DNA of 64,000 bases from NCBI GenBank assembly GCA_963805625.1, contig CAWDVE010000013.1, positions 544,001 to 608,000 on the forward strand, in the 5' to 3' direction. This document shows, one piece after another, positions 7,937-26,025 of the stretch; the first letter of the stretch is position 1; each line of letters opens with the position of its first letter. The notes beneath the pieces were generated by a model, which saw only the letters and a list, made by a program, of their open reading frames with translations, was not told where the DNA came from and did no database searches. The stretch is from an uncultured Candidatus Rokubacteria bacterium (GTDB taxonomy: Bacteria; Methylomirabilota; Methylomirabilia; Rokubacteriales; DASRDR01). A program made the position numbers and the translations under genes.

Positions 7937-8000
7937 CGGGGTCAGACCCCAGCATGCCCACAGAACGCTCCACAGTCATGAGATCCGGGGTCTGACCCCG
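7937..8000. repeat. REP-like paired palindromes
   Basis: CGGGGTCAGACCCC (7937-7950) and GGGGTCTGACCCCG (7987-8000) are perfect 14-bp inverted repeats, each nearly self-palindromic. Confidence 0.7.
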
Positions 8001-8011
8001 CAGGAGGACGC

Positions 8012-8962
8012 ATGACCCCGAGGGGACTCGAGCTGAACGTCATGATCGAGGGCCAGGAGGGTCTCACCTGGGAGCGCTGGCAGCGCCTGGCGCGGGCCGC
8101 GGAGGACGGCGGATTCGGCGGGCTCTACCGCTCCGACCACCTCACCGGGCTCTTCGGGGACTCGACGCGACCCTCGCTCGAGACGTGGGCGTCGCTGCCG
8201 TGGCTCGCGACCGCGACGAAGCGGATCCGCTTCGGCCCGATCGTCTCCCCCCTGACGTTCTACCACCCCGCGCTCCTGGCCAAGCGCGCCGCCGCCATCG
8301 ACCAGCTGGCCGGCGGCCGCTTCGACCTCGGCATCGGAGCGGGCTGGAACGAGATGGAGCACCGCATGTTCGGGATTCCGTTCCCGCCGCTTCGCGAGCG
8401 CATGGACCGCCTGGAGTCCGGGGCGCGGGCGATCCGCGCGCTCTGGCACGGGACGCCGGTGACGCTCGATCAGCCCTACTCTCCGCTCGTCGAGGCGCAG
8501 AGCTTCCCCCTCCCGACGGGCGTGCGGCTAATCGTCGGTGGGCGCGGCGAGCGGCGGACGATGCGCGTCGCCGCCGAGCTCGCCGACGAGTGGAACGCGA
8601 CGCGCGTGACCTTCGACGAGTATCCGCGGAAGCTCGAGGTTCTGGCCGGCCACTGCCGCGCCGTCGGACGGGATCCGGCGACGATCCAGCTGTCGCTGAT
8701 GGCCCCGATCGTGGTGGGCCGCACGCGGGCCGAGGTCCTAGCCCGGCTGGCCCGGGGCCGCGAGTGGTTCCCGCGCGTCCCGGAGCACGAGGCGGAGTGG
8801 CGGGCCCAGAGCTTCCTCTTCGGCTCGGTGGACGAGGTGGTGCGTGACCTCCGTCGCTGGCAGGAGCTCGGGATCCGGCGCGTCATGCTCCAGTGCCTCG
8901 ACATCGACGACCTCGCCGCGCTCGAGCTCGTCGCCCGCGAGGTGATCCCCGCCGTCGTTTGA
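8012..8962 (+). CDS. LLM-class (probably F420-dependent) oxidoreductase
   Basis: MIEGQEG, RSDH, SPLTFYHPALLAK, GGRFDLGIGAGW..EH. Confidence 0.85.
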   Translation: MTPRGLELNVMIEGQEGLTWERWQRLARAAEDGGFGGLYRSDHLTGLFGDSTRPSLETWASLPWLATATKRIRFGPIVSPLTFYHPALLAKRAAAIDQLAGGRFDLGIGAGWNEMEHRMFGIPFPPLRERMDRLESGARAIRALWHGTPVTLDQPYSPLVEAQSFPLPTGVRLIVGGRGERRTMRVAAELADEWNATRVTFDEYPRKLEVLAGHCRAVGRDPATIQLSLMAPIVVGRTRAEVLARLARGREWFPRVPEHEAEWRAQSFLFGSVDEVVRDLRRWQELGIRRVMLQCLDIDDLAALELVAREVIPAVV

Positions 8963-8981
8963 GCCGGAGTGCCTGAGTCCG

Positions 8982-9896
8982 ATGACCCCTGACCGTCCGC
9001 CAGCGTCAGCGCCGGCCCCAGCGTCGGCCAAGATCTCACGCGCGGGCCGCCTGCGCGCTCAGCTCGCCCGCGGGCGCCTCACGGTGCCGAGCTGCTACGA
9101 CGCGCTCGGCTTCCGCATGATCGCCCGGGCCCGCTTCCCGGCGGCCTTCCTCAGCGGGTTCTCGGTGTCCGCGGCCCGGCTCGGGGTTCCGGACGCCGGC
9201 CTCCTGTCCTACGGCGAGATGGCGGCGCAGGCCCGCGACGTGGCGGCGTCGGCGTCGATTCCCCTGATCGTCGATGGCGACACGGGCTTCGGCAGCGCGC
9301 AGAACGTGCAGCGCACGGTCCGAGGCTTGGCCGCGGCCGGCGCCGCGTGTCTCATGCTGGAGGACCAGGAAAGCCCGAAGCGGGACTTCGGAGCGCCCGG
9401 CGCGGTGGCTCCGCGAGCTGACGCCCTTCGCCGGGTGAAGGCGGCCGTCCAGGCTCGCGAGGCCGGCGCCGAGATCCTGATCATCGGTCGCACCGACGCC
9501 CGCAACGCGGCCGGGCGAGCCAGCGGGCTGGACGAGGCGCTGTGGCGCGCCGCCGCGTTCGCGGACCTCGGCGCCGATCTCGTGTTCGTCACCGGGCCGC
9601 ACGACGCAACGGAGCTCGGGCGCGTCCGCGGCGCCGCCCGGGTGCCACAGATCGTTCAGGTGGACGAACCGGGTCGGACATGGCTCGGGCCGGCCCAAGT
9701 CCACGAGCTCGGCTTCGAGGTCGCGCTGTACGGGATCTCGCTCGTGCTCGCGGCCGCCGCCGCGTTTCGAGACGCGCTGGCCGCGATGGCCGCCGGCCGG
9801 CCGCTGCCGGACGATCGGGCCGTCACGTCCGGGGAGATCGGCGACATCGTCGGGGTAGCCGACTACCTCGCCGTCGAGCGCGACCTGGAGAGCTGA
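8982..9896 (+). CDS. Isocitrate lyase/PEP mutase family protein
   Basis: YDA, SGFSVSAARLGVPD, VDGDTGFG, LEDQ, GRTDA; catalytic loop reads KRDFG. Confidence 0.82.
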   Translation: MTPDRPPASAPAPASAKISRAGRLRAQLARGRLTVPSCYDALGFRMIARARFPAAFLSGFSVSAARLGVPDAGLLSYGEMAAQARDVAASASIPLIVDGDTGFGSAQNVQRTVRGLAAAGAACLMLEDQESPKRDFGAPGAVAPRADALRRVKAAVQAREAGAEILIIGRTDARNAAGRASGLDEALWRAAAFADLGADLVFVTGPHDATELGRVRGAARVPQIVQVDEPGRTWLGPAQVHELGFEVALYGISLVLAAAAAFRDALAAMAAGRPLPDDRAVTSGEIGDIVGVADYLAVERDLES

Positions 9897-11090: not shown

Positions 11091-11300
11091 TCAGCGGGAC
11101 TGAACTGACGGAAGGCATTGAGCCGGGCCTCGTGGGCGCGCCAGTCGAGCGCGCCCGCCAATACTCGCGAGTGCACAGGACCGAGGTCCGGCGTCGCAGC
11201 CGTCCGGGAACCTCGTCGGCCAGCGCGTCCGCGCGAGTCGCTCGGAGATCTTGCAGGACCCCGTCGGGGACGTGCCCGTGACGGCGCCAGCAGTGCCCAT
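11091..11300 (-). pseudogene. Epoxide hydrolase N-terminal (EHN) remnant
   Basis: HVPDGVLQDL / RLARTRWP / DEVPG / EYWR / DWRAHEARLNAFRQF are spread over three frames. Confidence 0.6.
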
Positions 11301-11444
11301 CGCGCGCGCCTAGTATGCCTTGACCCTCTCCCGGCCAGGAGGGCAGAACGCGGCCCACCGACCGAGCCAGCCGGCCCGGGGAGGACCACATCCATGGCGG
11401 AACATCACCGGATGTTCGTCGAGGCAGTCCCCGCTGGGACGGCG

Positions 11445-11774
11445 CTAGCGCCCCCGGCGAGCCGCCACCGCGAAGTCGAGGAAGTAGCGGTCGAGATCCT
11501 CCAGCGTGGCTCCGTACTCGCGCCCGCCGTCGGCGGCGTCGCACAGCACCTCTCGGGCCCGCGCGATCTCCTTGAGCCGGCCCCGCCAGCGCGGGTCGGC
11601 CAGCGTGAGATCCAGGAGCTCCAGCGCGCGCTCGAAGGCGGCGGTCCGCTGCGCCGCAGCGCGGCGACGCATCCGTCCTACCTCCGCCCCGACGTTGGCC
11701 AGCTGCTCGGCAAGGGACAGCTGCTGCCAGCGGCCGCCGGCGAGACCCGGGTGACGGGGAGGCGGCGTCGTCAT
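11445..11774 (-). CDS. Conserved hypothetical helical protein (partner of DUF5674)
   Basis: RWQQLSLAEQLANVGAEVGR...FERALELLDLT...EIARAREV...LDRYF; ATG overlaps the DUF5674 stop. Confidence 0.75.
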   Translation of the reverse strand: MTTPPPRHPGLAGGRWQQLSLAEQLANVGAEVGRMRRRAAAQRTAAFERALELLDLTLADPRWRGRLKEIARAREVLCDAADGGREYGATLEDLDRYFLDFAVAARRGR

Positions 11775-12124
11775 TCCCGGACCAGGCGATCCACGATCGC
11801 TAGGATCCGCTCTCGCCGCGCGGCGTCCTCCACCGAGCGAGAGCGATTCCCCTGCAAGGGTCTGACGTTGATCATCGAGTCGAACTCGACGCGCTCGGCC
11901 CCGGCGGTGTCGGGATACAGGTTGATGCCCCACAGATCCGCCTGACGGGAGCCCTGATCCAGGAGGGCTGCCTCCTCGTCGGCGTGTAGCTCGCCGCCGA
12001 TTGCCATGATGCCCTGCTCCACGTCCACCACTGCCTTCACCATCTCGCCGAACTGCTCCCGCGCAAGGCTCCGCACCTCGTCGAGCGTGAGGGGTTCGCG
12101 GACGATCTGGATCGGGATGGCCAC
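11771..12124 (-). CDS. DUF5674 family protein
   Basis: MVKAVVDV...IGGELHADEE..LL..GS.Q.DLWGINLYP...FDSMINVRP..GNRSR; GTG after AGGAG. Confidence 0.8.
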   Translation of the reverse strand: MAIPIQIVREPLTLDEVRSLAREQFGEMVKAVVDVEQGIMAIGGELHADEEAALLDQGSRQADLWGINLYPDTAGAERVEFDSMINVRPLQGNRSRSVEDAARRERILAIVDRLVRE

Positions 12125-12170
12125 AGGACTCCTGTCCGGCCGCCGCCTCGGCGGCGGATCGCGAGCGATG

Positions 12171-12848
12171 CTATCCCGCGCGGTCCTCCGCAGCAACCCC
12201 GGGCGACGCCGACCGGTCCCAGGCCACGAACCGCCGCATGCTCCCGCTCGCCCGCCGGGTGGCGGGCTCGATGGCGAAGCCGGCGGCCTCGATGGTCCGC
12301 TCGGTGTCCCGGTTCGGCCGGCAGCCGCCGGCCACCCGGGTCCACGCGGGCTGGATCAGGTCCTGCACCCGAGCGCGCCAGGGGCGGTCGGACCGCACGT
12401 GCTCCAGCATCCGGAGCGCGCCGCCCGGGCGGAGGACGCGCCGGACCTCGGCGAGGCCCGCCTCCGGGTCGTCGACGCTGCAGAAGACGAGGCCGCTCAC
12501 CACCGTGTCGAAGGCCTGGCTCCGGAACGGCAGGGCCTCGGCCCGGGCCTGGACGAGCCGCGCGACAGGGGCACGCCGACGGGCGCGGCGGAGCGGGTCG
12601 CGCGCGGGGTCGACGGCCACGGTGCCGACCGGAAGGAGCGGCAGGTTCCGGCCGGTGCCGCAGCCCAGGTCGAGGACGCGGCCGCGGGCGCCCTCACAGA
12701 GCCAGCATCGCCAGCGCTTGAGCCCCGTCCACTCGGCAAGCGCAAGGGTCGCGTCGTAGAGCCACGGGATCTGCTCGAACCCCCGCCCCGGTGGACGCGT
12801 TGAGCGCGCCGCCCCGCTGCCCGACGAAGCGGCGGGGCGGCGCGACAC
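12171..12848 (-). CDS. Class I SAM-dependent methyltransferase
   Basis: VLDLGCGTG, AEALPF, FDTVV, LVFCSV, EHVRS, GGCRPNR; start approximate. Confidence 0.82.
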   Translation of the reverse strand: MSRRPAASSGSGAARSTRPPGRGFEQIPWLYDATLALAEWTGLKRWRCWLCEGARGRVLDLGCGTGRNLPLLPVGTVAVDPARDPLRRARRRAPVARLVQARAEALPFRSQAFDTVVSGLVFCSVDDPEAGLAEVRRVLRPGGALRMLEHVRSDRPWRARVQDLIQPAWTRVAGGCRPNRDTERTIEAAGFAIEPATRRASGSMRRFVAWDRSASPGVAAEDRAG

Positions 12849-12853
12849 TGGAG

Positions 12854-13726
12854 TCAGTTCGGCCGGCGGTGCGACTGGACGTGGCGGTACATGCCGGCCA
12901 CGTTGAGCGGGAACGTCTCCTTGTAGCCTCCCCACCCCTCGTATTTCGGCATCGTCACGGCCTGGACCACCTCTTGCTCGCTCTTCCCTTCCCGCGCGAG
13001 CCGGAGCACCTCGTCGCGGAGCTCCTCCATGTACACGCGGAAGGCGCGCACGTCGTCCTTCGTACCGACCGGGCCGTGGCCAGGGACGAGCACGTCGAAA
13101 TCCATCGCCTCGACGCGCCGGAGCGACTCGATCCACTCCTCGATGTAGGCGTCCGGCCAGTCCCGGAACCCGATCGCCTTCACCGGGATGAAGTCGACGG
13201 CGAACAGGAGGCGCTCCCTCGGGAAGCGCATCACGACGGAGTTGTCCGAGTGGTTCCGGCCCACGTACAGGAGCTCGACCATCGTGCCCCCCAGCTCGAT
13301 CGTCATGCGGTCGGAGAACGTGGCCTGGGGCACGGCCGTCGGCCGCTTCTCGGCGACGATCGTCCGCCGGGCATTCTCGTGGGCGATGATCCGGGCGGTG
13401 TCCGCGAAGACCTCGCCGCCCGAAATGTGATCGGCGTGGTCGTGGCTGTAGACCACGACTCGGATCGGCTGGGAGAAGCTCTTGGCGATCTCGGCCTTGA
13501 GCCAGCGGGCGGCATCGGCGTTGATGGGGTCGGTCGCGATGACACCCTCGGGCGTCACGGCGAAGACCGAGTAGTGGAAGTTGTTTCGGAAGCGGTACAC
13601 CGGCCCCACGAGCGGGGTGATCTCCCGGACCGGAGCCGTGGCCTGAGCGGATACCAGCTGGGCCCGGAGGGGCAGGACTGCCAGGCCGAGGCCCCCGGCG
13701 AGGACAGCGCGGCGCGTGATCGTCAT
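12854..13726 (-). CDS. MBL-fold metallohydrolase with Tat-like signal
   Basis: MTITRRAVL twin-Arg signal, SHDHADH, HSD, PGHG. Confidence 0.85.
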   Translation of the reverse strand: MTITRRAVLAGGLGLAVLPLRAQLVSAQATAPVREITPLVGPVYRFRNNFHYSVFAVTPEGVIATDPINADAARWLKAEIAKSFSQPIRVVVYSHDHADHISGGEVFADTARIIAHENARRTIVAEKRPTAVPQATFSDRMTIELGGTMVELLYVGRNHSDNSVVMRFPRERLLFAVDFIPVKAIGFRDWPDAYIEEWIESLRRVEAMDFDVLVPGHGPVGTKDDVRAFRVYMEELRDEVLRLAREGKSEQEVVQAVTMPKYEGWGGYKETFPLNVAGMYRHVQSHRRPN

Positions 13727-13883
13727 GAACGCCTCCTCTTTGTATGCGAAGGGTTAGAGCCGCGGGTGCCCGACAGCCCCGGGCATCACCCGCCGGTCGA
13801 CACTCATTCAACTGGCCGGGGCCCCCGGAAGTTCAAGGCTCCGCCGTACCCGGGGGGCCGCCCCGCGCCCGGCCCGGCAGGCG

Positions 13884-14684
13884 TCAGTGCATCAGGAAGC
13901 CACCGTCGACGGTGACCGCTTGCCCCGTGATGTACCCGCCCGCCGCGGACGCCAGGAAGACGATGACGCGGGCGACGTCGTCGGGGTCGGCCAGCCGGCC
14001 GAGAGGCACGGTGGCAGCGCGCTGCTTCATGAACTCGCCGGCGGCGAGACCCTGCTGGCGAACGCCGATCAGGTCGTCGAGCCGCCAGTTGAAGTCGGTG
14101 TCGACGATCCCCGGGCAGACCGCGTTGACGCGGACGCCGTGGCGGGCGAGGGCGCGCGCCGCCTGCTGCGTGAGCGACAGGACCGCCGTCTTGCTGGCCG
14201 CGTACGGGGGCGAGAGGCTCGCCGAGCCGCGGCCGGCGATGGACGAGACGTTCACGATGGCGCCCGCGCCCTGGCGGATCATCACCGGCGCAGCCGCCTG
14301 CATGCAGAAGAAGAGGCCGCGCGCGTTGACGGCGAAGGTCTCGTCCCAGTCGCGCTCGCTCACCTGGCCGAACGGGGTCGGCCGGATCACCCCCGCGTTG
14401 TTCACGAGGACGTCGAGCCGCCCCAGGCCCTCGGTGACGCGCGCGACCAGGCGCTCGATCTCCGGCACCGCCGAGACATCGGCCGGAAGCGCGAGGGCCT
14501 TCCGTCCGAGCGCGCGCACCTCGCCGGCCACCCGCTCGGCGGCGTCGGCGCGGAGGTCGTTGACGGCGAGGTCGGCTCCCGCGCGAGCCAGGGCGAGCGC
14601 CGTCGCCCGGCCGATCCCCTGCCCCGCCCCCGTGACGAGGGCGACCTGGCCCGCGAGCGACTCGCCCGCCGCCCTCTCAGGCAC
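13884..14684 (-). CDS. SDR family oxidoreductase
   Basis: TGAGQGIG, NNAG, YAASK, NAVCPG, VDGG. Confidence 0.88.
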   Translation of the reverse strand: MPERAAGESLAGQVALVTGAGQGIGRATALALARAGADLAVNDLRADAAERVAGEVRALGRKALALPADVSAVPEIERLVARVTEGLGRLDVLVNNAGVIRPTPFGQVSERDWDETFAVNARGLFFCMQAAAPVMIRQGAGAIVNVSSIAGRGSASLSPPYAASKTAVLSLTQQAARALARHGVRVNAVCPGIVDTDFNWRLDDLIGVRQQGLAAGEFMKQRAATVPLGRLADPDDVARVIVFLASAAGGYITGQAVTVDGGFLMH

Positions 14685-15747
14685 GGATCTTCTCCCGGCG
14701 CGCGCGCACGGCCTTCGCGAGGTCGTCCAGCACCGGCAGCGTGTCGTCCCAGGCGAGGCAGGCGTCGGTGACGCTCTGGCCGTACACGAGGGGCTCGCCG
14801 GGGCGGACGTCCTGTCGCCCCCCCACCAGGTGACTCTCGATCATCACCCCGAAAACGTGGCGGAGACCGTCGGCGATCTGCCCGGCGAGGTCGCGCGCCA
14901 CGGCGGGCTGCCGCGTATGGTCCTTGCCGCTGTTCCCGTGCGAGCAGTCCACCATGATCCGGGGAGGCAGCCCGGCCCGGGTGAGCACCTTCGCCGTCTG
15001 CTCGACGTCCTCGGCGTGGTAGTTCGGGCGCCGGTGGCCTCCGCGAAGGATCACGTGGCAGGCATCGTTGCCGCGCGTGACCACGATGGCTGCCAGCCCC
15101 TGCTTCGTCACGGAGAGGAACTGGTGCGGGTGCATCGCCGCCCGGATCGCGTCGACCGCGATCTGGACGTTGCCGTCCGTGCCGTTCTTGAACCCCACCG
15201 GCATCGAGAGGCCCGACGCGAGCTCGCGGTGGACCTGGCTCTCGGTGGTACGGGCGCCGATGGCCCCCCACGACACCAGGTCGGCGATGAACTGCGGAGT
15301 GATGGTGTCCAGGAACTCGCATCCCGCGGGGAGACCCATGTTCGCGAGATCGAGGAGAAGGCCCCGCGCCAGGCCCAGCCCGTCGTTGATCGCGAAGCTC
15401 CCGTCGAGCCTGGGGTCGTTGATGAGCCCCTTCCACCCGACGGTCGTCCGCGGCTTCTCGAAGTAGACGCGCATGACGAGCAGGAGGTCGGCGGCGAGCC
15501 GATCGGCGGCGCCCCGGAGGCGCGCCGCGTATTCGCGCGCGGCCTCGACGTCGTGGATCGAGCAGGGCCCCACGACGACCAGGAGCCGGTCGTCCTCGTC
15601 ACGGAGGACGCGGTTGATCGCCTCGCGCCCCTCGGCGATCGTGTTGGACGCCTCCTCCGTGATCGCGAATTGCTCCATCAGGATGGCAGGCGGGATCAGC
15701 GGCCGGAGCCGCTCGATCCGGAGGTCGTCGGTCGGACGCAGCATCAC
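14677..15747 (-). CDS. aroG: 3-deoxy-7-phosphoheptulonate (DAHP) synthase, class I-alpha
   Basis: GPCSIHD, MRVYFEKPRTTVGWKGLINDP, AIGARTTESQVHRELASG, DCSHGNS; isoform (aroF/G/H) not resolvable. Confidence 0.93.
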   Translation of the reverse strand: MMLRPTDDLRIERLRPLIPPAILMEQFAITEEASNTIAEGREAINRVLRDEDDRLLVVVGPCSIHDVEAAREYAARLRGAADRLAADLLLVMRVYFEKPRTTVGWKGLINDPRLDGSFAINDGLGLARGLLLDLANMGLPAGCEFLDTITPQFIADLVSWGAIGARTTESQVHRELASGLSMPVGFKNGTDGNVQIAVDAIRAAMHPHQFLSVTKQGLAAIVVTRGNDACHVILRGGHRRPNYHAEDVEQTAKVLTRAGLPPRIMVDCSHGNSGKDHTRQPAVARDLAGQIADGLRHVFGVMIESHLVGGRQDVRPGEPLVYGQSVTDACLAWDDTLPVLDDLAKAVRARREKIRA

Positions 15748-16019: not shown

Positions 16020-16793
16020 ATGACGCAATCGACGCCACCTCATCCCGTCCTCGACCGGTACTACGGCAGTGCGGCGGATCGGCGATCGTTCGTCGCCGCG
16101 CTGTTCGACGGCGCCGCTCGCCACTACGACCGTGTCGGGCGAACTCTCGACCTGGGCTCGGGACCGTGGTATCGACGCCAGGCCCTCCGGCGGGCCGGTC
16201 TGCGGCCCGACATGAAGCTCCTGGACGTCGCGACCGGCACGGGTCTCCTGGCCCGCGGAGCCGCGCGCATCCTCGGCAACCCGGGTGGGGTGGTCGGCGT
16301 CGATCCGAGCGCCGGCATGCTGCGGGAGGCACGGAAGGCGCTCACCGGGCCCCTCGTGCGGGGGTGGGCCGAGGCGCTGCCGTTCAGGAGCGACCACTTC
16401 GACATGCTCAGCATGAGCTTCGCCCTGCGTCACGTGGCGGAGCTCGAGGTGGCCTTCGGAGAGTATCTACGTGTCCTGAAGCCGGGGGGTCGCCTCCTGC
16501 TCCTCGAGGTGTCTCGTCCCCGCTCAGCCGTGACCCGCTGGGTGATGAGGGTCCACCTGCAGCGGGTCCTGCCGTGGCTCATGCAGATCAGCACGGGCAG
16601 CGAGCCCGCTCAGCTGCTCATGAAGTACTACTGGGACACGATCGACCGGTGCGTCCCGCCGGAGACGATCGTGGACGTCCTGCGCCGGAGCGGCTTCGTC
16701 GGCGTCGAGCGTCGGGTGTTCTTCGGCTTCCTCAGCGAGTACGTGGCGTCCAAGCCGGGCGGCGGGCGACCCGTCCGCGCCGTCAGCGGATAG
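16020..16793 (+). CDS. UbiE/MenG-like SAM-dependent methyltransferase
   Basis: LFD..A.HYD, LLDVATGTG, AEALPF, RVLKPGG, YYWDTI; 3' end overlaps the halogenase by 11 nt. Confidence 0.82.
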   Translation: MTQSTPPHPVLDRYYGSAADRRSFVAALFDGAARHYDRVGRTLDLGSGPWYRRQALRRAGLRPDMKLLDVATGTGLLARGAARILGNPGGVVGVDPSAGMLREARKALTGPLVRGWAEALPFRSDHFDMLSMSFALRHVAELEVAFGEYLRVLKPGGRLLLLEVSRPRSAVTRWVMRVHLQRVLPWLMQISTGSEPAQLLMKYYWDTIDRCVPPETIVDVLRRSGFVGVERRVFFGFLSEYVASKPGGGRPVRAVSG

Positions 16794-18120
16794 CCAGCGT
16801 GGAGGGATCGATCCCCCCCAGCCCGTAGCGGCTCAGCAGCCGCAGCAGGCCCCGGCTGTACCGGGAGGTCGTGGCGGCCCCGCTCGCCTGCAAGCCGATG
16901 TGGCGCTCGATGTGATGCTGCGCCCTCTCCCGGACGAACCTCGATCCGTGCCCCATGAACGCTCGCCCGGACCGCATGAGGGCCGCGAGCCGCCCATCGT
17001 AGAGGTAGGCGACCAGGTCCTGCCAGGCGGCCAGCATCGCCGTCTGGACCTCTGCGTAGGAGGCAAGCGCCGAGTCGAGCTCGGCCGGTGACGGGGGCTT
17101 GCGCCGCCGAATCACTGGACCGAGACCTTCGGCCACGAGCTCGGCCGAGCGCAAGGCGAGGAAGACCCCGGGCGAGAGCATGGGATCCACGAAGCCGAAG
17201 GCGTCTCCGACCATCACCCAGCCCGGGCCGTGGCCACGCCGGGAGATCAGCTGATAGTTGGCGTAGGTGGCAACGCCCGTGACCCGTCGCCCCTCCCCGA
17301 CCACAGAGCGGAGCCAGGAATCCCGGTCGACGGCCTGATCGAGCCGCTCCTCCGGGGTGCGTCCGAGCTTCGCGGCGTCCTCCTGGCCCAGCACGATCCC
17401 CACCGACAGCCGATCCTCGAGCGGAATGCACCAGCTCCAGCCCGCCGGGCCGCGCGCGATGAGCACCTGCCCCGGCGCGTCGTCCCAGCGGAAGCTCTCG
17501 AAGTGGGCGAAGTGCGCCACGTCCTTTCGCGGCCCGAGCTGGGCACCGATTCCCAGCGCACGGGCCCCGTGACGGGCTCGGCCCGTCGCGTCGACGATCA
17601 GGTCTGGCTGACGGCCGCCCAGAACGGGCGCCGCCGCCAGGGTCTCGGGCGCCAGGGCCAGTTCCGCTCCGGTCCCGTCGGCGAGCTTGCGCTCGAGCCG
17701 GGCCCGGCCGACCACGTGGTGGACGCCGGCCGCGAGGGCCCGGTCGCGCAGGGCCTCGTCGAAGCGCGGGCGCGGGATGTTGTAGGCGTACGGGAACACG
17801 GACGGCGCGAAGCGGGCGAACGTGAAGCTGAATCGGTCCGTCGGCGACCAGATGAAGGAGACGCCCGGCTTCACGCGGCCGAAGGCCGCCATCTCTTCCT
17901 CGACGCCGAGACGCTGGAAGATCGGCACGACGGCCGGCACGAGCGATTCCCCGACCAGGAGCTCCGGGCGTCGGTCCTCGTCGAACAGGGTGACCTCGGC
18001 CCCCTCGCGGGCCAGCAGCATCGACAGGGCTGATCCCGACGGTCCGGCGCCGATCACCGCGACCCGGAGGCGACCAGGGCCGTCGGGTGACCTTCGATGC
18101 GTGTCGCCCAGCCCACGCAT
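16783..18120 (-). CDS. Flavin-dependent halogenase-like oxidoreductase
   Basis: GAGPSG (GxGxxG), VGESL, K in RVKPG, WSWCIP (WxWxIP), GDAFGFVDPMLSPG. Confidence 0.78.
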   Translation of the reverse strand: MRGLGDTHRRSPDGPGRLRVAVIGAGPSGSALSMLLAREGAEVTLFDEDRRPELLVGESLVPAVVPIFQRLGVEEEMAAFGRVKPGVSFIWSPTDRFSFTFARFAPSVFPYAYNIPRPRFDEALRDRALAAGVHHVVGRARLERKLADGTGAELALAPETLAAAPVLGGRQPDLIVDATGRARHGARALGIGAQLGPRKDVAHFAHFESFRWDDAPGQVLIARGPAGWSWCIPLEDRLSVGIVLGQEDAAKLGRTPEERLDQAVDRDSWLRSVVGEGRRVTGVATYANYQLISRRGHGPGWVMVGDAFGFVDPMLSPGVFLALRSAELVAEGLGPVIRRRKPPSPAELDSALASYAEVQTAMLAAWQDLVAYLYDGRLAALMRSGRAFMGHGSRFVRERAQHHIERHIGLQASGAATTSRYSRGLLRLLSRYGLGGIDPSTLAIR

Positions 18121-18124
18121 GGGG

Positions 18125-19606
18125 TTACGACCGCTCCGCGGGAACGCGCGCCTCGGTCGGAGGCGGGCGCCTGAGGATCTTCCCGCCGGGCGTCTTCGGG
18201 ATGGCCGCCACGACCGTGAACTCGACGGGCACCTTGTGCGAGGAGAGCGCGCGAGCGCAGTGTGCCCTGAGAGCGTCCAGGTCGCAGGCGGCGAAGCCCA
18301 GCACGATCTCGGCCCGAGGGACTTCACCCAGGCGCGCGTGCGGGTGGCCGAACACCCGGGATTCCCTGACGCCCGGGAACGCGTTGATGCAGGCCTCGAC
18401 CTCCTCCGGAAAGAACTTCAGTCCGCCGACGAAGATGACGGCCTTCTTGCGCCCCTCCAGATAGAGTGCCCCGGACCCATCCACCCGGCCGACGTCGCCC
18501 GTGAGGAACCAGCCGTCCCGCGTGACCTGCTCGCGAAGCTGCCACGGGGCGTAGTACGCGGAGAAGAGCCCACCGCCCCGGAGCGCGATCTCCCCGACAG
18601 CGCCGGCGGCCAGCGTCGCCCCACTCTCGCCGAGTACGACGACCTCGTAGCCCGGGACCGCACGACCCACCGAGGTGGCGGGCAGCCCGTCGCCGGGGAC
18701 GTTGATGCAGGGCAGGCCCGCCTCGATGATCCCGTAAGCCTGAGCGACCGGGACGCCGTGGACGGACTCGAAGCGGTCCATCACCGCCGGCGTGATCGGG
18801 GCGCTGGTCGACAGGGCCAGCCGCAGGCTCGTCAGGGCTTCGCTCGCCGGCAGGTTGGCCAGGCGCTCGAAGTGAAGCGGCGAGGCGTAGAAGACGGTGG
18901 CCCGGAGTCCCCGGATCGCGTCGATCACGGTTCCGGGCAAGGTGTCCGGACACAGGAAGACGTGAGTCCCGGCCCGGACGTAGGCCACGATGGTCACCGC
19001 GAAATGGTAGGCCAGCGGCAGCACCCAGAGAACACGATCGTTCTCGGTGAAGCGAAGCACGCGGTCGGCCGCCTCGACCCGGGCAAGGGTGGCCTCGTGG
19101 GAGAGCACGACGCCTTTGGAGCGGGCCGTGGTCCCGGAGGTGAAGCGGATGAAGGCGGGGTTCACGCTCGAGAGCCCCACCGGCCCCTCGGCCTCGCGAT
19201 CGAGCCACTGGAACGTGAATCCCTGGCACGGCCCGCCGGCGAGGAGCGCGCGCTCGTCGGAGCTCGGCAGCGAGTCCGCCCTGGGCCAGGCGAGACAGCC
19301 GTTCACGTCGACCTGGCTCAGGAGCTCGGCCGTCTCGGTCGGCGTGAGGTGCTCGGCCACGGGCACCAGCGAAGCGCCGGTACCCAGGACACCGAAGGCC
19401 GCGGCCAGATACGCGAGGCCGTTCGGTGCGAGGAGCCCGATCCGCTGTCCCGGCTCGACGCCCCGGGCGCGGAGAAACACGGCGACCCGCTCCCCCTCGC
19501 GGGCCAACTCGCCGTACGTCAGCATCCGGGCGGACCGGACATCGGTCACGGCCGGACGGTGTGGATGCCGCGCGGACGTGGCTCCGAGGAGCTCGTTGAG
19601 ATTCAT
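18125..19606 (-). CDS. Adenylate-forming enzyme (AMP-binding, acyl/aryl-ACP or CoA ligase)
   Basis: FTSGTTARSKG, YGIIEAG, FLTGDVG, GRKK...GG..FFPEEVE, PKTPGGK. Confidence 0.88.
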   Translation of the reverse strand: MNLNELLGATSARHPHRPAVTDVRSARMLTYGELAREGERVAVFLRARGVEPGQRIGLLAPNGLAYLAAAFGVLGTGASLVPVAEHLTPTETAELLSQVDVNGCLAWPRADSLPSSDERALLAGGPCQGFTFQWLDREAEGPVGLSSVNPAFIRFTSGTTARSKGVVLSHEATLARVEAADRVLRFTENDRVLWVLPLAYHFAVTIVAYVRAGTHVFLCPDTLPGTVIDAIRGLRATVFYASPLHFERLANLPASEALTSLRLALSTSAPITPAVMDRFESVHGVPVAQAYGIIEAGLPCINVPGDGLPATSVGRAVPGYEVVVLGESGATLAAGAVGEIALRGGGLFSAYYAPWQLREQVTRDGWFLTGDVGRVDGSGALYLEGRKKAVIFVGGLKFFPEEVEACINAFPGVRESRVFGHPHARLGEVPRAEIVLGFAACDLDALRAHCARALSSHKVPVEFTVVAAIPKTPGGKILRRPPPTEARVPAERS

Positions 19607-19613
19607 CGAGCGC

Positions 19614-20921
19614 TCAGGGCCGCGCGGTCCATTCCATCCCCTCGGCGATTGCCTCGACGATCCGCGTGACCTCGTCCTCGCTCACGACCCCCTCGATCCA
19701 CGAGACGACGAGGTTGTCCTGCCCCGCGCACCGGTTGAAGAACACGCCGATCCCGGGCCGGAGCGGCACCGCCGGCACATGATAGGCGTTCAGGACGCGG
19801 CGATCGAAGCATCGATCCAGAGACGTCGGGAACGCCGTCACGTCGGCACAGTTGAACGAGAAGATTTCGCCGCCCTTCGTCCATGGAAGACTGCGCAGCA
19901 CCCTCGAGAGGGGGCGGTACTTGAGAAACTCCATGCTCACCTCGTTGGCCTCGATCTGACCGTCGCGCACCGCGTCGGCCATCTGGCGGCGCAGGCTCCG
20001 GGCCAGGCTGGACGGGTCGGCGGTGTCGGACGGCCGGAACCGCGCGAAGTGGAAGGCGAGGAGATTCCCGAAGGTCGGTCCCGCCTCCCCCTTCGGGCGG
20101 AGATCCACCGCGATCGGCAGAAGGAACGGGACGTCCGGAAGGCCCCGCCGCTCCCACAGATGCGCCATGGCCCGGCCGACGACGGCCACACGCCAGGAGA
20201 TCTCCCGGCTCGTCGGCCGGTGTCCGTTCCTGTTCGTCCCCCCGAAGGTCACGCGCCGGAAGCGCGCCCCTCTCGAGGCGACCCGTGCGGGGGCCGGTGA
20301 GACCGGGGGAACGGGAGCCAGGGTGCGGATGTACGCCAGGCTCTGGCGGCCGAGCCGCGCACGCTCTCCGAGAGGCCGCTTGTCCGGGGACGGCACGAAG
20401 GCGGGGAGCGCCCCGTTCCACGGCCACTCGCCCTCGAACCGATCGAGGTGGCAGAGGTGCGCGAGGAGGTTCTGAGCGCCTCGCGGGTCCATCAAGGGAT
20501 GGAACCACGTCAGGACCAGGAAGCCCCGCTCCGGCCCGTCGAGGAGCAGCACGCGGAGTGGCGCCTCGCGCGCAGGATCGACCGGCGCGTTGAGCTCCGT
20601 CGTCAGCGCACGCTGGAGATCCTCAGGCGTGGCGACGGCTCGCCGGCTGATCGGCGGGCGGGTCAGCCTCTCGCGCGGACCGGCCGCCCAGTGAAGCTGG
20701 CCCCACGGAAACGGGCGGCGCAGGCGCGCCCCGGGCCACGGGCACGCGTCCAGAAAGCGATCGAAGGCGCGACCGATCCGCTCGAGGTCGACCGGGCCAT
20801 CGCACTCGACCACCAGGAGGGCATTGTTGCTCAGCCCCATGCGGCGGCCGCGCATGTGCATCGCCATCAGGACGAGGTCCGCCCCGCGGAGGGGAAGCCG
20901 ACGACGCAACGCTCGCTTCAT
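19614..20921 (-). CDS. Stand-alone condensation-domain-like / CoA-dependent acyltransferase
   Basis: APLRVLLL...LVLTWFHPLMDPRG (HxxxD), PIAVDLRP, FGN. Confidence 0.62.
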   Translation of the reverse strand: MKRALRRRLPLRGADLVLMAMHMRGRRMGLSNNALLVVECDGPVDLERIGRAFDRFLDACPWPGARLRRPFPWGQLHWAAGPRERLTRPPISRRAVATPEDLQRALTTELNAPVDPAREAPLRVLLLDGPERGFLVLTWFHPLMDPRGAQNLLAHLCHLDRFEGEWPWNGALPAFVPSPDKRPLGERARLGRQSLAYIRTLAPVPPVSPAPARVASRGARFRRVTFGGTNRNGHRPTSREISWRVAVVGRAMAHLWERRGLPDVPFLLPIAVDLRPKGEAGPTFGNLLAFHFARFRPSDTADPSSLARSLRRQMADAVRDGQIEANEVSMEFLKYRPLSRVLRSLPWTKGGEIFSFNCADVTAFPTSLDRCFDRRVLNAYHVPAVPLRPGIGVFFNRCAGQDNLVVSWIEGVVSEDEVTRIVEAIAEGMEWTARP

Positions 20922-20974
20922 AGGTCACGTGACGCCGTCGGGCCCGGTTCGGCCCGGATGCGGCGAAGGGGTGG

Positions 20975-21319
20975 CTAAGCCAGGCTCCTCCGGCGGGACA
21001 CGTAGCCCGCCAGGGCACGGAGGGACGAGACGTTCTCCGTCCGGAGATCCGCGTCGGGCATCCAGAACCCGAATTCGGCCTCGACGAAGAGCAGGATCTT
21101 CAGCAGTCCCATGGAGTCCACGCCGGCCGCCTCCAGGTCGTCGTCCGGCTGGATCGGACGGCCGCGGGCCATGATGTGAGCGTTGACGAAAGCAGCCAGG
21201 GCGCGGGCCACGCCGTCCGCGTCGGCGGATGGCCCGGGGGTGGGCGAAGACTCCGTGCGACCCGGATCAGGCTCCGGGTCGCGGAGATGCAGTCCGGCCC
21301 ATGATCCTCCCCTCGGCAC
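20975..21319 (-). CDS. Acyl carrier protein
   Basis: DDDLEAAGVDSMGLLKILLFVEAEFG phosphopantetheine Ser motif; start is either GTG 21319 or GTG 21211. Confidence 0.85.
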   Translation of the reverse strand: MPRGGSWAGLHLRDPEPDPGRTESSPTPGPSADADGVARALAAFVNAHIMARGRPIQPDDDLEAAGVDSMGLLKILLFVEAEFGFWMPDADLRTENVSSLRALAGYVSRRRSLA

Positions 21320-21328
21320 GGCGCGGTA

Positions 21329-21358
21329 ACACTACCGCCGGCGCCGCTCCCGGGTCAA
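21329..21358 (-). promoter_or_regulatory. Putative sigma-70 promoter of the ACP-to-halogenase operon
   Basis: TTGACC-18 nt-TAGTGT on the minus strand. Confidence 0.45.
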
Positions 21359-21435
21359 CCCGCGGCCGACCCGACTCCGGGGCGGTCGGGACTGGTCCTC
21401 GCGGGCCGTTGCCGGGGGCGTCCGCGGGAGGGATC

Positions 21436-22209
21436 ATGGGGGCCGTGAGGCTCGGCTGGAAGGCCCGCGCCACGCAGTGGGGCAAGGCTCCGGGAGCCCC
21501 GGAGGACATCCAGTTTCTCCGGGGTCCGCAGCGTCGGAGCTTCGAGCTCTGGCGGACCATCCGGATCTTCTTCGAGTTCCTGCGCGGATTCCGGACCCTT
21601 CACTTCGTGGGCCCGTGCGTCACCGTCTTCGGCTCGGCGCGCTTCCCCGAGACGCATCCCTACTACGTCCTGGCCCGCCAGCTCGGGGCGCGCCTCGGGC
21701 GCGCCGGGTTCACCGTCATGACGGGGGGCGGCCCCGGCATCATGGAGGCGGCAAACCGGGGGGCGCGCGAGGTCGGAGGCCGCTCGGTCGGCTGCAACAT
21801 CGAGCTGCCGCAGGAGCAGCGCCCGAACCCCTACCTCGACCGCTGGCTCACCTTCCGGCACTTCTACGTGCGGAAGGTCATGCTAATAAAGTACTCGTAC
21901 GCCTTCGTCGCGCTGCCGGGCGGATTCGGCACGCTCGACGAGATCTTCGAGACGGCGGTGCTGATCCAGACCGGGAAGATCCGGGACTTCCCGCTGGTCC
22001 TCATGGGCCAGGAGTTCTGGCAGCCGCTCCTCGACTTCGTCGAGGTGCGCCTCCTCCGCGAGGGCCTCGTGGACCCTATCGACGCCAAGCGCTTCACGGT
22101 CACGGACTCGGTCGAGGAGGCCGTGACGGCCATCGTCGACGCCGCGACGCGCCACTTCGGGCTGACCTACCACCCGCCGGTCAAGCGGCGCTGGTTCCTC
22201 TGGGAGTAG
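21436..22209 (+). CDS. LOG family (TIGR00730) nucleotide phosphoribohydrolase
   Basis: VTVFGSAR, TGGGPGIMEAANRGA, RKVML, PGGFGTLDE. Confidence 0.9.
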   Translation: MGAVRLGWKARATQWGKAPGAPEDIQFLRGPQRRSFELWRTIRIFFEFLRGFRTLHFVGPCVTVFGSARFPETHPYYVLARQLGARLGRAGFTVMTGGGPGIMEAANRGAREVGGRSVGCNIELPQEQRPNPYLDRWLTFRHFYVRKVMLIKYSYAFVALPGGFGTLDEIFETAVLIQTGKIRDFPLVLMGQEFWQPLLDFVEVRLLREGLVDPIDAKRFTVTDSVEEAVTAIVDAATRHFGLTYHPPVKRRWFLWE

Positions 22210-24846: not shown

Positions 24847-26025
24847 GTGTCCCTGAGCGCTTCCGGCGGGACGATGTCGACGTTCGAGCTGCTCCTCGAC
24901 TGCGTCACCGCTCCGCGGCGGGACGAAGCGCGCGCGCGGCTCCGCCGGCGGCTCGGCGGGCCGATCGACTGGGATGCGGTGCTGGACTCCGCGCGCCGGC
25001 ACGGGATCACGCCGCTCGTCTACCTGGAGCTGCGCGCCGCGCCCGACGGTCTCGTGCCGCCCGACGCGCTCGCACGGCTGCAGGCCTTCCACTCCGGGAA
25101 CACGCGCCGCTGCCTCCTCCTCACCGGATGGCTCCGGCGTGCTGTCGACGCTCTCGCGGCCGCGGGCGTCCAGGCGATTCCCTACAAGGGGCCCGTGCTC
25201 GCGGCGCTCGCATATGGGAGCATCGCCAGCCGCCAGGCCGGTGACCTCGACATCCTGATCGATCCCGGGGACCTCGGCACCGCCAAGGAGGCGCTCCACG
25301 CGGAAGGATTCCGGGCGCAGATCCCGCTCGAGGGCTGGCAGGAGCAACAGCTGGTGCGGTCCGCGCACCCCTACGGCCTCGTCCGGGACCATGAGGGCAT
25401 CGTGCTCGAGCTCCACTGGAGCGTCTCTCCGCGGTCCCTCTCGGCCGGTCTGGGCGGGAAGCTCCCGCGCGAGCGGCTCGAGGAGGTGGCGGCGGCGGGC
25501 ACGACCTTTCTCACGCTCCCGGTGGACGTGCTCCTCGTCGCGCTGTGCGTCCATGGCGCCAAGCACGTGTGGGAACGGCTCGGCTGGATCGTGGACGTGG
25601 CGGAGCTGATCCGGAGGCGGCCGGGACTCGACTGGGCCGGGGTGCTTGCCCGCGCCGGCGAGGCAGGTCACCTGCGAGAGCTCCTGCTCGGCTGCCTCCT
25701 GGCGCGGGACCTCCTGGGCACGGATCTGCCCGAGATCCTGTGCCGCCGCCTCGCCGCCGATCCATGGCTCCCGGCGCTCGCGCGCGTGGCTCGCGCCCAG
25801 CTCGCCCTCACGGCTCACGGGCGCCTCGGTATCGCCGAGACGGCGCGGTTCCACCTCGGGGTCCGCGGAACCTGGCGCGACCGCCTCGCCTACTTCCGGT
25901 TCGCGATGATGCCGACCGTGGCCGACTGGACGGCCGTCCCGCTACCGCGGTGGCTCGCGCCCCTCCACTATCCCCTGCGGGCGGCGCGCCTGCTCCGGGG
26001 CGGGGCGTCCCACGGTCACCACTGA
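24847..26025 (+). CDS. Uncharacterised nucleotidyltransferase family protein (NTP_transf_5-like)
   Basis: YKGPVLA...YG...RQAGDLDILI, ELHW, HGAKH.W.RL.WI.D; alternative ATG at 24874. Confidence 0.75.
   Translation: MSLSASGGTMSTFELLLDCVTAPRRDEARARLRRRLGGPIDWDAVLDSARRHGITPLVYLELRAAPDGLVPPDALARLQAFHSGNTRRCLLLTGWLRRAVDALAAAGVQAIPYKGPVLAALAYGSIASRQAGDLDILIDPGDLGTAKEALHAEGFRAQIPLEGWQEQQLVRSAHPYGLVRDHEGIVLELHWSVSPRSLSAGLGGKLPRERLEEVAAAGTTFLTLPVDVLLVALCVHGAKHVWERLGWIVDVAELIRRRPGLDWAGVLARAGEAGHLRELLLGCLLARDLLGTDLPEILCRRLAADPWLPALARVARAQLALTAHGRLGIAETARFHLGVRGTWRDRLAYFRFAMMPTVADWTAVPLPRWLAPLHYPLRAARLLRGGASHGHH

Follow-up and report, generated by a model that had tools for sequence, protein, structure and literature searches.

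Introduction

The β-tyrosine module of C-1027 biosynthesis comprises an adenylating enzyme (SgcC1), a carrier protein (SgcC2), a flavin halogenase (SgcC3) and a free-standing condensation (C) enzyme (SgcC5). Pyrrole halogenation by the PltF/PltL/PltE/PltA, Bmp1-4 and Mpy15/16 systems likewise depends on a carrier protein, and the vibriobactin pathway combines the aryl-acid ligase VibE and the aryl carrier VibB with VibH, a free-standing C domain that acylates a free amine. The arcuflavin and xanthomonadin clusters encode a hydroxybenzoate AMP ligase (ArcT), an acyl carrier protein (ACP; ArcV), a halogenase (ArcA) and a methyltransferase (ArcM) (PMC3949708). Here we analyze a five-gene cassette in a 64,000-nucleotide stretch (hereafter the window, C13:544001-608000) from the genome of an uncultured Candidatus Rokubacteria bacterium of the phylum Methylomirabilota. 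The cassette encodes a small ACP, a stand-alone condensation-fold (C-like) protein, an ANL-family adenylating ligase, a halogenase-type flavin adenine dinucleotide (FAD) enzyme and a UbiE/COQ5-family S-adenosylmethionine (SAM)-dependent methyltransferase (MT), and it most likely operates as a carrier-protein pathway in its own right. In our preferred reading, to which we assign a probability of roughly 0.55, an acid is activated, loaded onto the ACP, halogenated and methylated, and then transferred by the C-fold enzyme.

As in the C-1027 module, adenylation and carrier functions are discrete, halogenation by a flavin enzyme would take place on the tethered unit, and the transfer would fall to a free-standing C enzyme. 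However, the ligase of the cassette is of the acyl-CoA (coenzyme A)-ligase type, whereas C-1027 employs an amino-acid adenylation enzyme, and the cassette has no aminomutase, enediyne or other scaffold genes and stands alone in a genome free of nonribosomal peptide synthetases (NRPSs). Four enzyme types are shared with the Arc set, a likeness at the level of enzyme type. In contrast to aryl-polyene clusters, the cassette has a C-fold enzyme added and is not adjoined by genes for a ketosynthase, dehydratase, reductase, acyltransferase, LolA or an exporter; chain-length-factor genes, like those for ketosynthases, dehydratases and reductases, were found neither at 0.6-38 kb of the window nor in the flanks of 88 related loci. 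With the pyrrole systems the cassette has in common a discrete carrier and activating enzyme, and the solved structures closest to its flavin enzyme include PltA, Bmp2 and Mpy16, but the ligase is not of the proline type and the window holds no acyl-CoA-dehydrogenase-type prolyl oxidase. Unlike in the setting of the halogenase FasV, no type II polyketide synthase (PKS) genes are adjacent. The vibriobactin system shares the use of a ligase, a carrier and a free-standing C enzyme, there forming an amide with a small soluble amine; it has no halogenase or methyltransferase, and the cassette has no siderophore genes. The cassette departs from C-1027 and from xanthomonadin starter logic in three respects: the family of its C-fold enzyme, its lack of any synthase and the phylum in which it occurs.

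Results

A compact five-gene cassette under purifying selection

The source genome comprises 7.27 Mb in 28 contigs and is 99.9% complete, and the protein relatives of the window come from metagenome-assembled genomes labeled 'Candidatus Rokubacteria/Methylomirabilota'. The G+C content of the window is ∼72%; because such a composition crowds mechanical lists of open reading frames (ORFs) with false frames, we chose frames by third-position G+C (GC3), and these statistics select exactly the five ORFs of the cassette. Four of them lie on the minus strand. The ACP gene (20975..21211) encodes 78 amino acids from a GTG start and matches PP-binding (PF00550, 7.6e-07); started instead from the GTG at 21319, the protein would have 114 amino acids. 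It is followed after 53 nt by the gene for the C-like protein (19614..20921, 435 amino acids), which was assigned by its predicted fold and belongs to no Pfam family, and after a further 7 nt by the ligase gene (18125..19606, 493 amino acids; AMP-binding, PF00501, 3.8e-65 and AMP-binding_C, PF13193, 4.6e-12). Only 4 nt separate the latter from the gene for the FAD enzyme (16783..18120, 445 amino acids; Trp_halogenase 6e-23 and FAD_binding_3), which has its stop at 16783 and a likely ATG start at 18120, the longest ORF beginning at 18327. The MT gene (16020..16793, 257 amino acids; PF01209 Ubie_methyltran, 1.1e-26) is on the plus strand and converges on the FAD gene, so that the two ends overlap by 11 nt (16783-16793).

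An initial annotation made from the sequence alone had proposed a minus-strand operon in the order ACP, C-like protein, ligase and FAD enzyme, a methyltransferase converging on it with an 11-nt overlap, and the motifs GVDS, HPLMD, GxGxxG, a catalytic-like Lys and WSWCIP. The ORFs and their tight spacing agree with this operon, the overlap is present, and every one of the motifs can be read in the sequence.

All five genes are under purifying selection, with dN/dS values of 0.13-0.34 against four relatives (0.15 for MT against locus L020); the neighboring DAHP synthase gene gave 0.06-0.11 in the same comparison. Together, the GC3-selected frames, the dN/dS values and a gene order that recurs in 88 loci show that the five-gene set is real and beyond chance. 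Short contigs from a soil RNA library (X20) cover parts of the MT gene (16335-16609, 3 differences) and the ligase gene (18609-18956, 8 differences). Since these contigs come from relatives and DNA carry-over is possible, we claim no transcription.

The gene order is conserved in Rokubacteria

Conservation was analyzed by mapping the window's proteins onto 88 related loci around relatives of the C-like protein, 8 from genomes and 80 from metagenomes, and for each gene only loci with sufficient flanking DNA were counted. The sample is Rokubacteria-like, as the metagenome scan gave only loci with at least 58% identity and the genome scan only the 8 Rokubacteria loci. The ACP gene immediately precedes the C-like gene in 75 of 77 loci, the ligase gene lies downstream of the latter in 44/46, and the FAD gene is present in all 35 that could be judged. 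The convergent MT gene is found in 23 of 28 loci, in one of them (L011) as a 43-residue remnant. The co-conservation at issue in the initial annotation is therefore seen for all four partners of the C-like gene. The sample contains near-duplicates (L036/L037; L015/L083/L085) and consists of kin throughout, so these counts describe one conserved arrangement and not independent events.

The canonical cassette contains two further genes, one for a PF12831 flavoprotein between the C-like and ligase genes (47/58 loci) and a divergent one upstream for a LigXa/VanA-like Rieske oxygenase (17/42). Both are absent from the cassette in the window's genome, where the best tblastn matches to them, on other contigs, are 25% and 28% identical, respectively. 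Thus, the five-gene set of the window is a reduced version of a six- to seven-gene cassette. Within the window's genus, the PF12831 flavoprotein is retained at loci L017, L019 and L020; L011 and L012, the nearest kin at 90% identity, lack it and have lost MT as well.

The C-like gene is carried by roughly one in five sampled genomes of the phylum (48/251; 19/104 of the high-quality ones) and is confined to two families of those sampled, with 4 of 20 and 43 of 159 genomes positive. In the genus to which the window belongs, 4 of 14 genomes have it, and in another genus (g15) all 17 do. This distribution, together with the selection acting on the genes, indicates that the cassette is accessory yet selected. 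Outside the phylum, the protein family extends to Planctomycetota (P0133, 39% identical), and a protein atlas contains look-alike clusters from Lentisphaerota and Planctomycetota. A plasmid search with the C-like protein gave no match.

A second form of the locus consists of a trio of C-like, FAD and MT genes. An amidase-signature gene is divergent from MT in every case of this form examined (L013, 11349-12905; L014, 11404-12915; L103, L106, L107 and L109).

The flavin enzyme groups with halogenases

The FAD enzyme carries the GxGxxG motif as GAGPSG (residues 24-29) and WxWxIP as WSWCIP (residues 228-233). G24, G26 and G29 as well as W228, W230, I232 and P233 are invariant in 25/25 aligned sequences, and WxWxIP is kept in 33 of 34 orthologues. 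The lysine K84 is shared by at least 31 of the 34 orthologues and by at least 90% of the 25 aligned sequences; in HMMER alignments it pairs with CndH chain residue 76 and with lysines of CmlS and FasV, and it is the equivalent of PrnA K79. GxGxxG, a catalytic Lys and WxWxIP are named as the three hallmarks of flavin-dependent halogenases in a published account (PMC5945002), in agreement with the statement in the initial annotation that WxWxIP and the Lys typify these enzymes.

Among solved structures, the best sequence matches are FasV (8zop, 3.6e-43), CndH (1.5e-30) and CmlS (2.5e-29), and further relatives are Bmp2, Mpy16, 3nix, ChlB4, RadH, PltA and CtcP, with PltA, Bmp2 and Mpy16 at 1e-18 to 5e-23. 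Named halogenases make up 11 of the 12 best PDB matches (3.6e-43 to 4.5e-11), the remaining one being the uncharacterised flavoprotein 3nix; the first named monooxygenase among the sequence matches appears at 1.7e-07. In line with this, a Foldseek search with an AF2 model of moderate quality (predicted local distance difference test, pLDDT, 75.5) placed halogenases or 3nix at ranks 1-40, with FasV first (26% identity), PqsL at rank 41 and KMO at rank 44. Both sequence matches and predicted fold hence put the enzyme with the halogenases, the grouping on which the initial annotation depended. From these sequence features we infer that it would halogenate a tethered substrate. Our literature search returned no relevant paper linking Rokubacteria or Methylomirabilota with a halogenase, and none for the structure '8ZOP'.

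A second halogenase-like FAD gene, 34% identical, lies at C24:46278-47348 (locus L101, 9095-10717) beside cupin, peptidase C69-like and solute-binding genes. We rejected it as a part of the cassette, its neighborhood being unrelated.

The C-like protein is predicted to adopt a condensation-domain fold

The C-like protein contains the motif F-H141-P-L-M-D145-P-R-G148 (FHPLMDPRG). Compared with the HHxxxDG motif, the second His and the Asp are kept, Phe replaces the first His, and the Gly is displaced by two residues; across 61 aligned homologues, D145 and G148 never vary, and at least 90% have H141. Pfam searches gave no PF00668 match and only a sub-threshold one to PapA_C, and seven of the 61 family members match PF00668 weakly (E down to 5.6e-06).

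The AF2 model is of high quality (pLDDT 93.8) and has two lobes, and on this basis we confidently assign the protein a condensation-domain fold. The top Foldseek match is AzeD (8s6l; E 4.9e-23, TM 0.73), followed by NRPS C domains, and AzeD and the NRPS condensation, epimerization and cyclization domains together span 4.9e-23 to 5.5e-17. VIA-align likewise ranks AzeD first, with a Z score of 32.4 and a root-mean-square deviation of 3.5 Å over 403 aligned residues at 16% identity, ahead of CDA-C1 (27.8), WS/DGAT (25.8), PapA5 (24.8) and SgcC5 (4znm; 22.8); overall, Z runs from 32.4 to 22.5 across ∼330-400 residues. SgcC5 thus shares the fold at a score far below that of AzeD and those of NRPS C domains (∼27), and VibH is not among the 50 structural matches listed. 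A profile of the C-like family searched against the PDB also finds AzeD best (1.5e-12), with NRPS C domains at 4.8e-12 to 1e-4.

AzeD from Pseudomonas aeruginosa is described as having founded a clade of C proteins that stand alone; its reaction is the dehydration of a bicyclic intermediate, free in solution, within an NRPS pathway, and its motif reads PHxxxDG (bioRxiv 10.64898/2026.07.17.738954). Both proteins are discrete and have lost the first His of HHxxxDG, to Pro in AzeD and to Phe in the C-like protein. Unlike AzeD, with which it shares 16% identity, the C-like protein is encoded next to an ACP in nearly all loci and in a genome without NRPSs. Its relatives number 595 at E≤0.001 in a 90%-clustered collection, every named one being 'hypothetical'; at 50% identity they form 598 representative clusters, 333 of which score ≤1e-10. 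We found no longer, fused versions, which is weak evidence for a stand-alone protein.

A complex model of the C-like protein and the ACP scored 0.74, compared to 0.01 for the best of three controls. This score is attained by 116 of 157 solved complexes and by 2 of 215 mismatched pairs, a calibration that holds only roughly here because our own alignments were used as input. Contact agreement between runs was at least 87% and the partners' pLDDT at least 85. The modelled contacts place ACP residues 32-43, around Ser38, on the C-lobe, at C-like residues 272-279, 304-319 and 360-366. As carrier/C-domain complexes are in the PDB, the result may reflect likeness to solved structures, and the model supports, rather than demonstrates, binding of the ACP by the C-like protein. 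The cassette has no thioesterase and this protein is its only candidate for off-loading; hence we infer that it would act as the off-loading transferase.

Carrier protein, ligase and methyltransferase

The phosphopantetheine serine of the ACP lies within 'GVDSMG', and D37, S38 and M39 are invariant in 32/32 orthologues.

The ligase carries 'SGTT' at position 157 and 'PKTPGGKI', with the A10 Lys, at 476. Its best PDB matches, fatty-acyl/feruloyl-CoA synthetase (8weu, 8wev) and malonyl-CoA synthetase chains, are nearly equal (5e-47 to 1e-45), and FadD13 follows at 8e-44. Because fatty-acyl, feruloyl, malonyl, oxalyl and 4-coumarate scores in the PDB and NCBIfam are so close, the substrate cannot be read from the matches. 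The protein stays below the proline/amino-acid adenylation model (TIGR01733, 152 bits; cut-off 317). ACP-loading fatty-acyl-AMP ligases (FAALs) are marked by a specific insertion between the two domains; here, the stretch between the two Pfam domains (352-402) is an ordinary 'WFLTGD...GR.K' A7-A8 region with no extra segment. The ligase would likely load the ACP rather than CoA.

MT belongs to Pfam PF01209 (94 bits; cut-off 20.1) and scores below every NCBIfam UbiE/MenG equivalog cut-off (NF001244, 129.4 vs 216; TIGR01934, 123.9 vs 158). A paralogue that is 48% identical is encoded ∼470 kb away (C13:89245-89970) and may be the housekeeping UbiE/MenG.

No synthase accompanies the cassette

The initial annotation had noted the lack of an NRPS or PKS, and this extends to the genome for PF00668 and to the contig for PF00109. 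PF00668 has no match in the whole genome, with the same search positive in 4 of 14 control genomes, and all nine PF00109 matches lie on C4, C10, C16 and C19, none on the window's contig. Pfam found no synthase among the 32 ORFs at 0.6-38 kb of the window, and the part beyond 38.3 kb is covered by these two genome-wide searches. Moreover, none of the 88 loci has a ketosynthase, dehydratase or reductase gene beside the cassette. One AcpS-type phosphopantetheinyl transferase gene and one Flavin_Reduct gene occur in the genome, each as a single copy and away from the cassette.

The only multi-ketosynthase cluster (C4:24000-37000, L099) is of a lipid type, with four ketosynthase or ketosynthase-like genes and an ACP, and a ketosynthase-ACP-ketosynthase trio lies on C19. 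The ketosynthase-like gene of C4 is found in 66 of 251 genomes of the phylum, and across genera its distribution and that of the cassette are nearly opposite: the cassette and the C4 gene occur, respectively, in 17/17 and 0/17 genomes of g15, in 4/4 and 0/4 of g24, and in 1/21 and 19/21 of g16. With no co-variation between the two, the cassette is probably not a satellite of the C4 cluster, another possibility that bore on the initial annotation. In the computed tests the overall interpretation is thus supported: the genes are co-conserved, the cassette does not follow the C4 cluster, and the flavin enzyme falls with halogenases.

The C4 cluster also includes genes for a MacB/FtsX ABC (ATP-binding cassette) transporter, a CDP-alcohol phosphatidyltransferase, an LPG-synthase-TM protein and a B12-binding radical SAM enzyme.

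Discussion

Flavin halogenases attack electron-rich aromatic or enolisable substrates, and for this reason the substrate of the cassette is probably an electron-rich aromatic or enolisable acid. In the pathway we propose, the ligase would adenylate this carboxylic acid, which would then likely be loaded as a thioester on the small ACP. The flavin enzyme would probably halogenate it in the tethered state and MT would methylate it; in other lineages, the Rieske oxygenase and the PF12831 flavoprotein would act on the acid as well. Finally, the C-like protein would release the acyl group by transfer to an amine or alcohol, yielding an amide or ester. Phosphopantetheinylation would be supplied by the single AcpS-type enzyme and reduced flavin by the single Flavin_Reduct protein. 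The order of these steps is our suggestion.

Several observations weigh against this pathway. The ligase resembles CoA ligases and has no FAAL insertion. MT has been lost in the close relatives L011, L012 and L017 and is dispensable there, and no acceptor-making gene, transporter or regulator is conserved alongside the cassette. FasV, the solved halogenase closest to the flavin enzyme, has a free aromatic polyketide as its substrate and chlorinates it at a late stage of fasamycin biosynthesis (PMC11420778). The remaining points concern the flavin enzyme and the C-like protein and are best considered with the alternatives they favor.

The flavin enzyme could be a halogenase-like monooxygenase that hydroxylates its substrate, whether tethered or free, to give a halogen-free product. 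QhpG is a proven hydroxylase with a CmlS-like fold, and its channel residues Trp181 and Trp183 are described as mostly conserved in CmlS (PMC7876137). The NCBIfam model of QhpG is also the top-scoring one for our enzyme, at 119 bits against a cut-off of 240, compared to 115 bits for the CmlS model, and the Rieske protein and PF12831 flavoprotein of the canonical cassette make ring oxygenation plausible within the pathway. However, the match to the solved QhpG is just 7.8e-07 and limited to residues 114-339, whereas halogenases score 3.6e-43 to 1e-18, the catalytic Lys of CndH and of CmlS is matched in the alignments by the conserved K84, and monooxygenases enter the structural ranking only after forty halogenase or 3nix entries. 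We therefore regard a hydroxylase as unlikely. A similar doubt applies to the last step, since the C-like protein might be no acyl transferase and might instead, like AzeD, catalyze a dehydration or cyclisation, or release a free modified acid by hydrolysis. Its nearest characterised relative by both fold and profile is a dehydratase of a free substrate and not a transferase, the first His of HHxxxDG is absent from both proteins, being Phe in ours, and the trio form with its amidase has no adjacent ACP or ligase gene (L013, L014). Yet identity to AzeD is a mere 16%, the C-like and ACP genes adjoin in all but two of 77 loci, the complex model, with its calibration caveats, would set the ACP serine region on the C-like protein, and the cassette holds no other release enzyme. 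Moreover, all four trio-bearing genomes examined (G035, G143, G131 and G130) also carry a cassette with ACP and ligase. Such a non-transferase role seems rather doubtful to us.

Two further explanations place the cassette in a different kind of metabolism. Rather than being autonomous, it could supply starter units and tailoring to a polyene, lipid or polyketide pathway encoded at another site, as in xanthomonadin and arcuflavin, whose published clusters share the ligase, ACP, halogenase and methyltransferase types; the genome does contain the four-ketosynthase cluster on C4 and the trio on C19. We consider this improbable, as ketosynthase, dehydratase or reductase genes accompany the cassette in 0/88 loci, the C4 ketosynthase-like gene, the one compared, has a nearly opposite distribution, and the cassette owns a C-fold enzyme that aryl-polyene clusters do not need. 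A catabolic role, in which the cassette activates and degrades an aromatic (lignin-derived) or halogenated acid, draws on the feruloyl-CoA synthetase among the best solved matches of the ligase, on the LigXa/VanA-like Rieske oxygenase upstream in many loci and on the amidase in some. It appears very improbable, since an ACP of its own whose serine never varies, a C-fold enzyme and a SAM methyltransferase are hallmarks of biosynthesis and not of degradation, and since the flavin enzyme belongs to the halogenating clade and not to dehalogenating or ring-hydroxylating ones.

The carrier-protein pathway that we prefer can be taken further, if tentatively: Rokubacteria may possess an autonomous NRPS/PKS-independent pathway whose off-loader founds a previously undescribed, Pfam-less and AzeD-related branch of stand-alone condensation-fold proteins and whose product is a small acyl or aryl conjugate, halogenated and methylated. 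If true, this would represent a class of soil metabolites overlooked by current genome-mining rules. Rokubacteria abound in soil; to our knowledge none has been grown in culture, and next to nothing is known of their chemistry. At 5.3 kb, free of megasynthases and under purifying selection, the cassette is a small and tractable target, and since it is easily synthesised and expressed, few approaches to a first metabolite from Rokubacteria would be as direct. The C-like family, with its ∼600 clusters, consists of stand-alone C-fold proteins without a Pfam model or a studied member. In addition, the series of natural variants, with or without the PF12831 flavoprotein, the Rieske oxygenase and MT, and with the trio plus amidase, could reveal the role of each enzyme. 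The advance would lie in a new family and a new product and not in a new principle, because the logic is familiar from C-1027, pyoluteorin and xanthomonadin.

Neighboring genes and other features of the window

Genes for a DAHP synthase, a short-chain dehydrogenase/reductase and a metallo-beta-lactamase-fold protein (12854-15747) follow the cassette only in the window's genus (L011, L012, L017 and L020). We considered the DAHP synthase as a dedicated source of shikimate precursors and rejected this, as the gene is a genus-limited neighbor and no second copy was found: tblastn finds only the gene itself in the genome, and PF01474 has no match. As the sole copy found, adjacent in this genus alone, it is probably a housekeeping gene outside the cassette. 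On the other side, a LOG-family gene (21229-22209) and the beta-CASP, 2-hydroxyacid dehydrogenase and NTP_transf_5 genes were excluded, their conservation being limited to the genus. The NTP_transf_5 gene (24847-26025; PF14907, an uncharacterised nucleotidyltransferase) follows the D-2-hydroxyacid dehydrogenase gene, and the two are conserved as a pair in the genus.

A small neighboring gene that appeared conserved, with a cluster in 47 loci, was discarded because it consists mostly of antisense ORFs over the ACP gene. A genuine secreted protein of 162 amino acids is encoded next to the cassette in a few loci and is absent from the window's genome. Scans for Rfam families and tRNAs gave no match anywhere in the window.

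Between the DUF2585 gene and the metallo-beta-lactamase-fold gene, a stretch of ∼1.7 kb (11100-12850) contains no ORF that passes the GC3 test. One codon position reaches 0.90-0.99 G+C at 12200-12650, and the stretch is conserved in L011, L012 and L017, so that it may hold an unrecognised gene or a miscalled frame. Elsewhere in the window, the gene for a luciferase-like monooxygenase directly precedes one for a member of the phosphoenolpyruvate (PEP)-mutase/isocitrate-lyase family (7982-9896), and an anthrone-oxygenase-family gene (PF08592; 37795-38271) follows an operon for a branched-chain amino-acid ABC transporter.

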